This document shows, piece after piece, positions 26,015-29,384 of a stretch of 64,000 nt of DNA. Numbering within the stretch: position 1 is the stretch's first letter; each line of letters starts with the position of its first letter. Source of the DNA: Candidatus Krumholzibacteriota bacterium (GTDB taxonomy: Bacteria > Krumholzibacteriota > Krumholzibacteriia > JAJRXK01); the NCBI GenBank assembly GCA_963764625.1, contig CAVXTH010000001.1:64001-128000 (forward strand), given 5' to 3'. A program made the translations under genes and the position numbers. The notes below the pieces were generated by a model, which was not told the origin of the DNA, did not search any database, and was given only the letters and a program-made list of their open reading frames with translations.

Positions 26015-26058
26015 AAAAAGAAAAGGCCGGCCCCTGAGATGGCCGGCCTCTCTTTTTG
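26015..26058. terminator. Bidirectional intrinsic terminator
   Basis: AGGCCGGCC-N8-GGCCGGCCT hairpin flanked by A-rich and T-rich tracts between convergent topA and rhodanese genes. Confidence 0.82.
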
Positions 26059-26095: not shown

Positions 26096-27172
26096 CTACT
26101 TCGTCGGAATTGCCGTTCCCACGCAGGGATAATCGGTCTGCGCCGGGTTGAACGGATGCGTGTTGACGCTGGCGTTGTCGTAGCACAGAGATTGCACGCC
26201 GAAGACCATGCTGTAGGCCTGATAGCCCAGCATGTTCAGGCACACCGTCACCTGCGCAGAGGTCTGTCCGGTCCAGCAGTAGGTCAGGATCTTCTGATCT
26301 ACCGGCAGAGTGTTCAGAGTGTTGTCGGTCTGCAGACTGCTCTTGGGTGCGTACTGCACCGCAGTGGGCATGTGACCGGCGTCATACTCCGTCGTGGGGA
26401 AGTAGTTCACCACGTACCAGGTGCCATCGTCGGCTGCGATCGAGTCGTAGACATTGCTGATCCCGCGCGAATTCCAGCCGGTGCCGAATTCGTTGTAGGC
26501 GCCCTTCACGTAGGCATCCGCGCGCGCTTTCAGAATGTCCAGGCCCGTGCCCAATCCGGTGCCGAGCTCCGGATAGCTGCCGGCGGAATTGCAAGCACAG
26601 GGGTCCGGGGTCATCCAGGCGCCATAGTCGCTGGAGAGTTTGGTCGTGTAGTCCGTGCCGCTGTAGCTGGTGTCCGAAGTCCAGCCGCTCATTCCGAAGG
26701 CAAGGTTCACGGCGTCAAAGCCCATGTCGATTCCCAGGAGGTTCATGATGGCGGTCGCGGTGCTCGCGGTCTGCCCGGTGTAGCACACGTTGCAAATGGG
26801 CTTGTCGGTGGGGAAGTCCCCGGCATTCACGTGATCGATGATCTCCGACAGCGACCAGTTTACCGCGCCTGCGATGTGTGCGTTGTCGTACACTGCGGAA
26901 GAGCGCCAGTCGACGACGAAGTAGTCGTCGGCGGGATCCGTGTTGCCAAAGTTTGCGTTATAGAGTGCCTGAGCCGAGATGTTGATCCCCAGACCGCGGT
27001 TGGGGGTGACATAGGTGCTCAGATAGGCATCGGTATACGGCGAAACCAGCGAGAAGCCGTCCGCCGCGGGAGGTGGTGTCGTTCCGCCATCGTCACTACT
27101 GCAACCGATGAAGGCGAAAACGAGGATCATCGTACTGGCAAGAAGCAGTTTGCTCCAAGTACTGCGATTCAT
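26096..27172 (-). CDS. Tandem rhodanese-domain lipoprotein (sulfurtransferase-like)
   Basis: Lipobox FIGC; VVDWRS..HIAGAVN..VCYTGQTA and GHMPTA..YCWTGQTS: two rhodanese domains, each with an active-loop Cys. Confidence 0.9.
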   Translation of the reverse strand: MNRSTWSKLLLASTMILVFAFIGCSSDDGGTTPPPAADGFSLVSPYTDAYLSTYVTPNRGLGINISAQALYNANFGNTDPADDYFVVDWRSSAVYDNAHIAGAVNWSLSEIIDHVNAGDFPTDKPICNVCYTGQTASTATAIMNLLGIDMGFDAVNLAFGMSGWTSDTSYSGTDYTTKLSSDYGAWMTPDPCACNSAGSYPELGTGLGTGLDILKARADAYVKGAYNEFGTGWNSRGISNVYDSIAADDGTWYVVNYFPTTEYDAGHMPTAVQYAPKSSLQTDNTLNTLPVDQKILTYCWTGQTSAQVTVCLNMLGYQAYSMVFGVQSLCYDNASVNTHPFNPAQTDYPCVGTAIPTK

Positions 27173-27263: not shown

Positions 27264-28613
27264 TCACCAGGATGAATTCGGTGCCCCGCCGGGCACCACG
27301 AGAGTCTGATTCGCTTGCTGCTCGGCCGTGGGCAGAGCAGACAGATCCGAGGCGCGGAGAAAGAAATCCACCGGCCCGTTGAATGAGTTGTGGCATGCGT
27401 CGAGGCAGGGCTTCCCCTCATCCACGGTCGTGCGATCCGTCCAACGCCTAATGTTGTGCGGCGTGGCCAATTTCCACGTCGGCTCGCTACTGAAATTGGG
27501 CAAGGTGCTCATGCCCCACGCCGCGTAGGTGTCTTCCACCACTGGTACGTGACGCAAGACCACGTATTTCTCCGACCGGATGTCCGACCTGGGGTTGTAG
27601 CCGATCTTGAAGGTCTCGTACGAAGAGCCGGTGATTCCCTGTCCCGCGTGACAACCGTTGCAGCTCTTGTAGTTCTGGCTGTGACAGACCTGACAGGCGA
27701 ACTGCGACATGTGGGTCGTGTGATAGACGTTGTCCCACTGGTTGTCGATGCCCGGGCCGTGACAGTCGGTGCATTGAGCCAAACCCGGCGCCTCGTAGCG
27801 AGACTGCGGAGCGCTTCCATCGCCGTGCATGTCGGCGCCGTCATGGCAATCCGTGCAGCTCATGGCCAGAGGAACGCGGTGGTAGTCGGCCCCGGCGTAG
27901 TCATTGTTGCCGTAGTACTCGTCGCCCACCCGCGAACCGTGACATGCGGTGCAGTTCTTCACCATGTCGGGAGTGCGGTTTACCCGGTGCGCTTTCACCA
28001 ATCCGCCACCCACCGGTTTCGGCGAGGAGATATGGCAGTCGCCGCAGCTCACGTGACAGCCTCCACATGCCGATTGGAAACCCGCCATGTAGTTTGGACT
28101 GTCGCTGATTTTCGCGCCCGAGCGCTTCTCGAACAGCGCGTAGTAGCCAGCTTGGGTGTAGTGAATGGCGTCCTCGTATGATCCGTGCGTGCCCGCGTGA
28201 CAGTCCAGACACTTGTTGTTGGGACCATCACTGGGGTCAGCGATCAAGCCCACGTGCGCGTCATCCTTAGTGTTCGTGCCGCTCTGTCCCCCGTGGCACT
28301 CGATGCAGCTGATCGTGCCGTGCACGCTGGCCAAGAATGCGGCTCCGTCGGTACCGTCGATCAAAACCTTTTTCCATCCCTCCACCGGAGGGATCGATCC
28401 GCCTCAACCCTCCCCCGTATCTGCGGGAAGCGTATCCGGCAGGGCAGTGGCGATCAGCATGCCTTGGTTGGTGTGGCAGCCCTCGCAGGTGGCGACCTGC
28501 AGCAGGGGGCCACTCCCGCCGTCGTTGCCGGAATCGCTGTTGCCACAGCCCCAGAGGCCACCCAAGGACAGTGATCCGGCGGCAAGCCAGAACAGGAATT
28601 TGCGTGAAATCAT
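27264..28613 (-). CDS. Selenocysteine-containing multihaem c-type cytochrome lipoprotein (449 aa, Sec70; 10 CxxCH + 1 CxxxCH)
   Basis: ORFs 28404..28613 and 27264..28385 share a frame and are joined through TGA at 28404-28406 (GEG*GGSIPP). The first part supplies RBS, lipobox LWGC and CEGCH; a SECIS-like hairpin follows the TGA. Confidence 0.85.
28376..28406 (-). promoter_or_regulatory. UGA codon plus bacterial SECIS-like stem-loop
   Basis: UGA GGCGGAUCG AUCCCUCC GGU GGAGGGAU: 8-bp perfect stem; the G-first loop begins 17 nt after UGA. Confidence 0.78.
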
Positions 28614-28629
28614 GTCAGTGGCTCCCTTC

Positions 28630-29298
28630 TCAGTTCTCCGCTTCCGGCGTCGACTGGATTGCGGAGTCATTTGTGTGGTTTGCGGTTTCCTCGGGGACCT
28701 CGGCCAGAAGCCCCCGCGCGAAAATGGGTACGTTGTTGCAGATGATGTCGAGGGTCTCGTAGGTGACGTCTTCGAGCTTGTTCCAGAACTCGGCATTCAC
28801 CGCGCATCCGATTACGAGTCCGACGTAACAGCGCGCGGTGATACCCGGATCGACCTTGCGCAGCTCTCCGCTCTCGATCCGCAGTTGGAATTCCTTGGCC
28901 AGGAAGTTTACGTAGGGCATGCGGAACTCGCGCAACAGCTTCGCGGCCGCGTCGTCGTCGGTGGCCGAGGTCATCAGAAGGAGTCGGAGAAGCTGAGGAT
29001 CCTGCTGCGCGGTGGAGAGCAGGTGAAGCGACACGGCGCGCAGGAGGTCTTCGACCGAGCCCAGGGAGCTCAGAGTTTCCAGGTAGGAGCTGATCGCCAG
29101 TCCACGCGAGCGCGATTCCACTGCTTTTTCGAAAAGATCGAGTTTGCTGGGGAAGTGCCGATAGATGGCCGCCGCGGTGATGCCCACCTCCTCGGCCAAC
29201 TGGCGCATGGAGGTGCCGGCGTAGCCTTGCCGGGAAAAGTGCTGAAGGGCGACCTCGAGGATCTGGTCCCGGCGCGAAAGTTTGGACAGCGCAGGCAT
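28630..29298 (-). CDS. TetR family regulator
   Basis: RRDQILEVALQHFSRQGYAGTSMRQLAEEVGITAAAIYRHFPSK. Confidence 0.92.
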   Translation of the reverse strand: MPALSKLSRRDQILEVALQHFSRQGYAGTSMRQLAEEVGITAAAIYRHFPSKLDLFEKAVESRSRGLAISSYLETLSSLGSVEDLLRAVSLHLLSTAQQDPQLLRLLLMTSATDDDAAAKLLREFRMPYVNFLAKEFQLRIESGELRKVDPGITARCYVGLVIGCAVNAEFWNKLEDVTYETLDIICNNVPIFARGLLAEVPEETANHTNDSAIQSTPEAEN

Positions 29299-29384
29299 CG
29301 CGGGGCCCTCGCAAGCAGAAGAGGAAACGGTCTGTTTCTTTCGTACTGACGGTGAATCCCCTGACTTTCGCCTGCAAGGAGAAA

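Follow-up and report, generated by a model that had tools for sequence, protein, structure and literature searches.

A probable selenocysteine codon in an eleven-haem lipoprotein cytochrome c of Candidatus Krumholzibacteriota

Does the TGA that interrupts a multihaem cytochrome gene of a Candidatus Krumholzibacteriota bacterium end translation, or is it decoded as selenocysteine (Sec)? The gene lies on the minus strand of a 64,000-nucleotide stretch of contig CAVXTH010000001.1 (assembly GCA_963764625.1, positions 64,001 to 128,000 of the contig), which is referred to here as the window and whose own numbering is used throughout. Read through the TGA, the frame yields a product of 449 residues with Sec at position 70 (U70) and eleven c-type haem motifs, ten of them CxxCH and one CxxxCH (CLDACH), and it closes at a true stop codon that is also TGA (27266-27264, minus strand). 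Comparison of the sequence with its homologues makes it very probable that 28613 to 27264 is one gene for an exported, lipid-anchored eleven-haem cytochrome c in which the UGA of codon 70 is decoded as Sec.

The interrupted reading frame and its homologues

The initial annotation, made from the sequence alone, described a 69-residue open reading frame (ORF) with a ribosome-binding site, a lipobox and a single CEGCH motif, ending in GEG-TGA, and all of these elements are present on the minus strand (Table 1). It was equally right that the frame continues: TGEG is followed by the TGA (28406-28404) and then, in the same frame, by GGSIPPVEGWK, leading into a 373-residue ORF with nine CxxCH motifs and CLDACH. 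In the plain ORF list the gene is split, the upstream ORF ending at 28404 and the 373-residue ORF (P0002) starting from a GTG at 28385, inside the hairpin described below. P0002 makes up 83% of the joined query and, as the ORF list and the translation agree, has no signal peptide of its own, which had also been claimed. Because gene callers end the frame at the UGA, their output is a stub of 69 residues and, separately, a 373-residue "cytochrome" with no export signal. Attachment of c-type haem requires export. The protein matches the Pfam family Cytochrome_C7 with 30.2 bits against a cut-off of 24.8, and homologues span residues 1-449 of the joined protein with exactly one internal TGA.

Table 1. 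Features of the cytochrome locus in window coordinates, with strand and the basis of each assignment
Feature	Position	Strand	Basis
Complete selenoprotein gene (predicted), 449-residue lipoprotein multihaem cytochrome c	27264..28613	minus	read-through translation
Shine-Dalgarno-like AAGGGAG, 8 nt upstream of ATG 28613	28622..28628	minus	motif only
Lipoprotein signal peptide, residues 1-23, ending GLWG-C23 (lipobox)	28545..28613	minus	motif only
Haem-binding motif 1, C43-E-G-C-H47, 5' of the UGA	28473..28487	minus	sequence
In-frame UGA, codon 70, inside G69-U70-G71-G72	28404..28406	minus	comparative
Body after the UGA, nine CxxCH and one CxxxCH	27267..28403	minus	sequence
Upper stem-loop of the selenocysteine insertion sequence (SECIS), AUCCCUCC-GGU-GGAGGGAU	28376..28394	minus	fold and homologue comparison
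Extended SECIS fold, lower stem including the UGA, predicted in this sequence only	28359..28409	minus	minimum-free-energy fold of 28345-28410
Rhodanese lipoprotein, two domains, active-site loops CYTGQT and CWTGQT	26096..27172	minus	Pfam Rhodanese E 3.8e-17, 2 stretches
TetR-family regulator, upstream of the cytochrome	28630..29304	minus	Pfam TetR_N E 1.2e-16
Terminator-like G+C-rich hairpin, T runs on both strands	26021..26052		consensus scan

The interruption is shared by relatives near and far. Of 41 related genomes searched in all six frames, 13 contain the gene, and each of the 13 best matches (41-86% protein identity) has exactly one internal TGA. Across the phylum, 71 of 208 genomes gave a match; residue 70 is covered in 68 of them, and 64 of the 68 have exactly one internal TGA. 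Of the remaining four, G140 and G135 use TGA both at the site and as the stop codon, and G166 and G118 have no TGA there. Where the site was read directly, in 35 phylum loci, G-U-G-G is in frame with TGA at codon 70 in every one (35/35), and all 35 have a lipoprotein signal peptide and a CxxCH ahead of this motif. A pattern scan of species-representative genomes returned at least 586 related loci, and the best 80 were examined at the aligned codon: 60 carry TGA, 11 TGC, 7 TGT and 2 neither. These 80 loci are labelled Krumholzibacteriota, Eisenbacteria, Gemmatimonadota, Calditrichota, KSB1, Chloroflexota, Phycisphaerae, Thermodesulfobacteriota, Bacteroidota, Ignavibacteria and others, the nearest being a Krumholzibacteriota locus at 85% identity. 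The alternation of Cys and TGA codons, proposed at the outset as a check on the Sec assignment, is therefore seen at a single aligned codon with frame and spacing unchanged.

In an alignment of 98 full-length read-through sequences, the column of residue 70 holds U in 82 and C in 16. Its flanks are nearly fixed (G69 in 97/98, G71 and G72 in 98/98), and conservation extends to both sides of the UGA, with C43xxCH47, L53 and G69 upstream and G71, G72, E78 and W80 downstream. Sec70 had been placed on a Gly-rich linker, but it does not sit on a loose one: outside the haem motifs, no motif of the protein is more conserved than G-[U/C]-G-G. Frame and spacing around the site are constant across homologues, and the stop codon found there is always TGA, never TAA or TAG. 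On a maximum-likelihood tree, all Cys forms but one (15 of 16) fall into a single Bacteroidota/Ignavibacteriota clade; L069 is the exception and branches among Sec forms, which requires at least two changes between Sec and Cys on the tree.

These data bear on the simplest alternative, that the UGA is a true stop. The locus would then encode a 69-residue monohaem lipoprotein and a 373-residue cytochrome re-initiated at the GTG, or it would be a pseudogene or an assembly error. Standard gene callers do split the gene, as had been anticipated, both here and in most database homologues: 117 of the 120 best database relatives cover no more than 84% of the joined protein and are therefore cut at the UGA, and greater coverage is reached by only three, of which two are Cys forms and the third has neither residue. 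Against a true stop, the interruption is TGA in every case, stands at one aligned codon in alternation with TGC and TGT, and keeps frame and spacing fixed. The position of the supposed GTG start is Leu in 71 and Val in 12 of 98 homologues, so there is no conserved start codon, and the downstream part would lack the export signal needed for haem attachment. Furthermore, an error or a pseudogene cannot recur in more than 90 genomes, and the hairpin that follows the UGA covaries and vanishes in Cys forms. Termination at codon 70 is extremely improbable on these grounds and close to refuted.

The genome to which the window belongs (96% complete, 9 contigs) contains the genes that the initial annotation had listed for Sec synthesis and insertion. 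A tRNA-Sec scores 73.3 bits and is called tRNA-SeC(tca) by ARAGORN; selB (355.5 bits) and selA (454.1 bits) are present; and selD (358.1 bits) lies at G000:C1:137574-138506, about 9.6 kb past the end of the window. All four exceed their family cut-offs. The selD gene itself contains one in-frame TGA, so selenophosphate synthetase is a selenoprotein here and Sec decoding is in use. A reassigned code does not explain the interruption, since TGA ends 33 of the 56 long frames in the window and is therefore not reassigned.

Confirmation of the TGA in raw reads is weaker. One 151-nt contig from an RNA library (X8; 28300-28445) of a close relative spans the site with five differences and an intact TGA; this documents the codon in that relative and says nothing on transcription or read-through. 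The best two DNA runs (X1, X2) are identical to the window where aligned, but their listed contigs miss 28404-28406, and none of the sequencing runs sampled by words contains half of the sampled words. Contigs from two salt-marsh runs (one DNA and one RNA library) align to two short conserved haem-motif stretches within 27673-28288, with 623 other letters between both stretches. They most likely represent a different multihaem gene of another organism and not a deletion form of this one.

The hairpin downstream of the UGA

A hairpin had been reported nine nucleotides past the UGA, and it is found at that distance. Its 8-bp stem carries a GGU apical loop that lies 17 nt after the UGA. In the available text of a recent review (PMC13188914), the bacterial SECIS (bSECIS) model specifies a loop of 3-9 nt with a G in its two opening positions, a stem of 4-16 bp, a UGA-to-loop distance of 16-37 nt and a minimum free energy of at most -7.5 kcal/mol. 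The hairpin satisfies all four constraints (GGU; 8 bp; 17 nt; -13.9 kcal/mol), and its folding energy when taken alone corresponds to a z of -2.74, with 3 of 200 shuffles equal or better. An Rfam E-value scan of 28250-28480 gave nothing relevant, only three chance matches at E > 2.

The structure is maintained across homologues as an 8-bp hairpin with a 3-nt loop, in either of two registers that lie one codon apart. In the first register, compensatory changes occur at 6 of the 8 pairs (39 cells), a value reached by none of 500 shuffles (0/500). The second register has 14 CG-to-AU or CG-to-UA double changes: where the codon on one arm has gone from Ala to Glu, an Ala codon on the other arm has changed synonymously to match it. 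Pairing is formed in 93.1% of cells in the first register (50 homologues), against 40.6-51.0% in a slid-partner control, and in 94.5% in the second (32 homologues), against 23.0-52.7%, percentages that are inflated because sequences were sorted by the better-pairing register; the double changes are unaffected by this sorting. The shifted register, relative to 28376-28394, is found in L027-L056, L064, L065, L068, L075, L085, L089, L091, L107 and L130, and the register was switched several times on the protein tree.

The Cys forms provide an independent control on this covariation. At least seven of the eight pairs form in 78 of 83 distinct Sec forms, as against 1 of 17 Cys forms, and the mean fold z is -1.53 for Sec forms and -0.32 for Cys forms. 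The sole Cys form with the hairpin is L069 (1962-3248; TGT at the site), which forms a perfect 8/8 and has the look of a fossil SECIS that outlasted a recent replacement of Sec by Cys. Agreement with the published bSECIS constraints and covariation among homologues both speak for the element.

Several results weigh against Sec decoding at this codon, in addition to the inflated pairing percentages. The 66-nt context fold with the lower stem (-24 kcal/mol) has only a modest single-sequence statistic (z -1.64, 16/200 shuffles), and the case for the hairpin draws its strength from the homologues. In the second register the double changes are confined to one pair, and two of five measures are not above shuffles. 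A synonymous-recoding test (UGA plus 45 nt, 500 recodings per locus) was weak, giving values of at most 0.05 in 5 of 30 loci; total fold energy does not discriminate, because G+C-rich recodings fold about equally well, and covariation and the contrast between Sec and Cys forms were therefore used in its place. Finally, four homologues carry neither Sec nor Cys, with W in G166, Q in G118 and rearranged motifs in L066 and L093, so that residue 70 is dispensable in some lineages. The flanking glycines are also changed in G166 (L137), G118 (L138), L066 and L093. Loss of the Sec machinery was considered as the cause of the W and Q and was rejected, since G166 and G118 both retain selA and selB above the cut-offs. 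Set against these points, the read-through translation, the conserved TGA, the hairpin and the machinery uphold the original proposal of one 449-residue protein with Sec70.

Relation to known selenium cytochromes and to public annotation

Multihaem cytochromes with Sec were established as real enzymes only in 2026, when MccSep was described as a polysulfide reductase (PMC13510729). The available text of that work describes MccSep/ExtKL (GSU2937-2936 of Geobacter sulfurreducens) as a protein with five haems, in which the active-site haem is His/Cys-ligated and reduction of polysulfide and selenite requires U325, a residue of a C-terminal Ig-like domain. The present cytochrome resembles it in being a periplasmic multihaem cytochrome c with one Sec, in having an in-frame UGA that splits the annotated gene, in the SECIS-like hairpin just 3' of the UGA, in the existence of both Sec- and Cys-type homologues, and in the presence of a gene for a rhodanese-like lipoprotein nearby. 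In Geobacter that gene is extH, with which the ext gene cluster starts (PMC5877670, available part).

The differences are nevertheless extensive. There are 11 haem motifs here and 5 in MccSep; Sec70 is N-terminal and set in G-U-G-G, whereas U325 is C-terminal and set in D-G-U-P; no second conserved Cys corresponds to the haem-ligating C239 of MccSep; and the protein is a lipoprotein by its motif, whereas MccSep is a soluble tetramer. The 637 homologues reported for MccSep belong chiefly to Desulfobacterota and Nitrospirota (PMC13510729), in contrast to the mainly Krumholzibacteriota-, Chloroflexota-, Calditrichota-, KSB1- and Eisenbacteria-labelled genomes found here. A profile of the family run against the solved MccSep chains (9wt8/9wt9) gave only E 0.22 and 13.8 bits over one 33-residue haem motif, and the protein has no match to the NCBIfam models NF040886 (MccSep/ExtKL), NF041027 (the GSU2204-family CXXCH selenoprotein) or TIGR04315 (the octahaem tetrathionate reductase family) even at E up to 10. 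Judged by sequence, the cytochrome is not a member of the MccSep/ExtKL family, the system that the initial annotation had named. It is also unlikely that the MccSep homologue list includes members of the eleven-haem family, given that the homologues were selected for five haem motifs and an aligned Sec/Cys site (PMC13510729, as far as the text is available).

The same three models are the only cytochrome-related families in the available part of the selenoprotein-family table of the 2026 review (PMC13188914). The present family does not appear there, nor is it in NCBIfam 20.0, and a literature search, which excluded subscription-only papers, returned no prior description of a Sec multihaem cytochrome of this kind. 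Sequence comparison indicates almost certainly that the cytochrome represents a new, widespread and systematically mis-annotated family of multihaem Sec-cytochromes, unrelated in sequence to MccSep.

The extent of the mis-annotation is apparent from the protein database, in which 1256 clusters were matched. Public annotation cuts the protein in two, so that the deposited proteins lack the export signal and the first haem as well as the catalytic residue. Among the 120 best relatives, 13 of the truncated pieces (P0005, P0013 and P0032 included) are named "thiosulfate/3-mercaptopyruvate sulfurtransferase" by one source. A domain search found no rhodanese domain in P0005 or in the protein of the window, and the name was probably inherited from gene calls that ran on into, or were fused with, the neighboring rhodanese.

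The rhodanese partner and the proposed function

That neighbor is a gene for a two-domain rhodanese lipoprotein, which follows the cytochrome on the same strand, 91 nt past its stop. No site was found between the two genes in a consensus terminator scan. The terminator-like hairpin of Table 1 sits between the convergent rhodanese and topA genes and is a possible bidirectional terminator; the scan is weak, with 2 sites found against 2.5 expected in shuffles. On the other side, a TetR regulator stands beside the cytochrome in 36 of 115 loci, all within the phylum-level group of the window, and the remaining neighbors of the gene pair are housekeeping genes.

The pairing with rhodanese is far more widespread than that with TetR. 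By tblastn, a rhodanese adjoins the cytochrome in 97 of the 115 loci, in many phyla and with Cys forms included; it is usually directly downstream, and upstream in some Chloroflexota and Calditrichota loci. Both catalytic Cys residues (C130 and C299) are invariant in 57 partner rhodaneses, and the partnership looks obligate. In P0125 (946 residues), a PKD domain, two rhodanese domains and the cytochrome are fused behind a single lipobox, and this fusion looks genuine. A second candidate fusion, P0124 (1058 residues, the cytochrome with four rhodanese stretches), was discounted as a probable run-on of the gene caller: its sequence begins just past the Sec position, and a lipobox occurs in its interior.

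Within the cytochrome itself, all eleven haem motifs are invariant in the 98 sequences (C43, C46 and H47 in 98/98), and the column of the lipobox Cys23 is kept in 96 of the 98. Nine His residues outside the motifs are invariant (98, 120, 151, 209, 245, 263, 298, 301 and 386). H355 is present in at least 90% of an 81-row alignment but in less than 85% of the 98 full-length rows, and the Bacteroidota-type Cys forms examined do not have it. There are hence about ten distal-His candidates for eleven haems. Apart from the lipid-attachment Cys23, no Cys-type residue outside the haem motifs is conserved other than Sec/Cys70; R164, R228, R272, R354, Y315, N340 and N387 are invariant too. Since the distal His fall one short and Sec70 is the sole conserved non-haem chalcogen, Sec70 would ligate or adjoin the His-less haem, and the conservation pattern fits a single catalytic haem whose sixth position is open or occupied by Sec70. 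An AlphaFold2 model built from the 81-sequence alignment has a mean predicted local distance difference test (pLDDT) score of 86.7 over the whole chain and a predicted template modeling score of 0.82. Foldseek found no match to it in the PDB at E up to 0.001, which is weak evidence for a new fold because multihaem folds are mostly coil. A single-sequence phmmer search of the PDB gave one match only (E 0.38).

From these features a mechanism can be proposed. SelB and tRNA-Sec would decode the UGA of codon 70, guided by the SECIS hairpin within the next 40 nt of coding sequence, and the resulting cytochrome would make up a module with the adjacent rhodanese lipoprotein, in which it supplies the redox half. 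Sulfane sulfur, drawn from polysulfide, S0 or thiosulfate, would be bound by the rhodanese in the form of a Cys-persulfide (or the selenium analogue would be bound), and the rhodanese would pass its load on to the Sec70 selenolate. Electrons from the haem chain would then cleave the Se-S (or Se-Se) adduct reductively, with release of sulfide. In the lineage of the window, the upstream TetR regulator presumably controls the operon. We tentatively favor this function, a Sec-dependent reductase of sulfane sulfur or selenite fed by the rhodanese, which rests on analogy and for which our confidence falls somewhat short of even. By the same kind of analogy, the cytochrome most likely works like MccSep.

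Precedents exist for several parts of this scheme. The Wolinella Sud protein and the Aquifex rhodaneses are periplasmic rhodaneses paired with a terminal sulfur reductase. The known partners are molybdopterin enzymes (Psr/Sre), however, and not a cytochrome c selenoprotein. More generally, rhodanese-like proteins are described as suppliers of sulfur to sulfur-reducing enzymes (PMC6378623, available text), and the present locus agrees with a rhodanese-coupled sulfur reductase module in its conserved adjacency to, or fusion with, a competent rhodanese.

The available text on MccSep also cites TsdA and SoxAX as His/Cys-ligated haem enzymes of sulfur metabolism (PMC13510729). If Sec70 ligates the His-less haem, the cytochrome would resemble them in placing a single chalcogen at a c-haem that does covalent sulfur chemistry; it differs in that the residue is Sec, not Cys, and neither protein is among its 52 PDB profile matches. 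For Sec itself, a preprint reports a native cytochrome P450 with a UGA-encoded Sec as axial haem ligand (PMC11703216, seen in part), so that natural Sec haem ligation has a precedent, though not in a c-type cytochrome. The P450 is a cytoplasmic, single-haem protein with a b-type haem thiolate monooxygenase fold, and is unrelated to c-type multihaem proteins. That Sec70 both serves one haem c as its distal axial ligand (His/Sec) and, as catalytic nucleophile, receives sulfane sulfur or selenium from the rhodanese would be the boldest reading, and it is an improbable one.

A different substrate would leave most of the scheme intact. The selenoprotein might interconvert thiosulfate and tetrathionate, or reduce or detoxify selenite or tellurite, with the rhodanese as thiosulfate-binding protein or selenium carrier. 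The best relative among solved structures by profile is 1sp3_A (E 4.9e-7, 32 bits, about 210 positions), the Shewanella octahaem tetrathionate reductase, which likewise has several haems and works on an S-S bond. The family name of the rhodaneses is thiosulfate sulfurtransferase, and the invariant R164, R228, R272 and R354 would suit an anionic substrate. Yet the 1sp3 match is weak, with high bias and driven mostly by CxxCH, and the tetrathionate reductase has 8 haems against 11 here. Its family, TIGR04315, is one of those to which no match was found; a single Sec-containing form of it is annotated in GenBank (PMC13188914, available part). As to selenite, MccSep reduces this substrate too (PMC13510729). 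The computed results do not separate thiosulfate, tetrathionate or selenite from polysulfide, and we consider this alternative unlikely, if somewhat less so than the double role of Sec70.

A further possibility is that the selenoprotein serves extracellular or periplasmic electron transfer to a metal or an electrode, with Sec only a potential-tuning haem ligand and the rhodanese incidental. A lipoprotein with 11 haems is compatible with such a role, some homologues have precomputed Pfam matches to the MtrC/MtrF domain family PF22113, and the Geobacter ext cluster was first interpreted as an electron conduit (PMC5877670, available part). One relative, P0122 (959 residues), carries a fused membrane domain of the prokaryotic cytochrome b561 type (PF01292), which also hints at the quinone pool as a source of electrons in some lineages. 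Against this, Sec is costly and is normally placed at catalytic redox sites, no porin or beta-barrel partner is found among the neighbors in the window, and a partner that adjoins the cytochrome in so many loci with its catalytic Cys invariant is hard to call incidental. Electron transfer as the main role appears quite improbable.

The reductase proposal also has evidence against it. Residues 61-78 around Sec70 reach a pLDDT of only 66-79 in the AlphaFold2 model, there is no electron-donor gene among the neighbors in the window, and the computed results are indifferent to the catalytic direction, reduction or oxidation. Furthermore, 18 of the 115 loci have no rhodanese match in the locus DNA examined; 13 of the 18 form one Chloroflexota clade, and several of the others end at a contig edge. 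Taken as a whole, with identity and function together, the rhodanese-fed Sec-cytochrome remains the best explanation of the locus, and a probable one.

The rhodanese-less Chloroflexota are of Anaerolineales type (L087, L104, L105, L108, L109, L114-L118, L124, L134 and L135). Translations of L087, L104 and L105 have a C-terminal extension with two further CxxCH motifs. These members may have a different partner arrangement.

Recognition of the family would correct public annotations and add a family to the prokaryotic selenoproteome. Among uncultured bacteria of sediment and soil, it would also point to a testable candidate for respiration with sulfur, thiosulfate or selenium. That two unrelated families both pair a Sec-cytochrome with a rhodanese suggests that reductive chemistry of the chalcogens follows a general design. 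If Sec70 does combine His/Sec ligation of a haem c with the role of nucleophile, the cytochrome would be a second, independent respiratory enzyme that cleaves S-S bonds with selenium and multiple haems, used by Chloroflexota, Calditrichota, KSB1, Krumholzibacteriota and other sediment lineages that have no recognized sulfur reductase.

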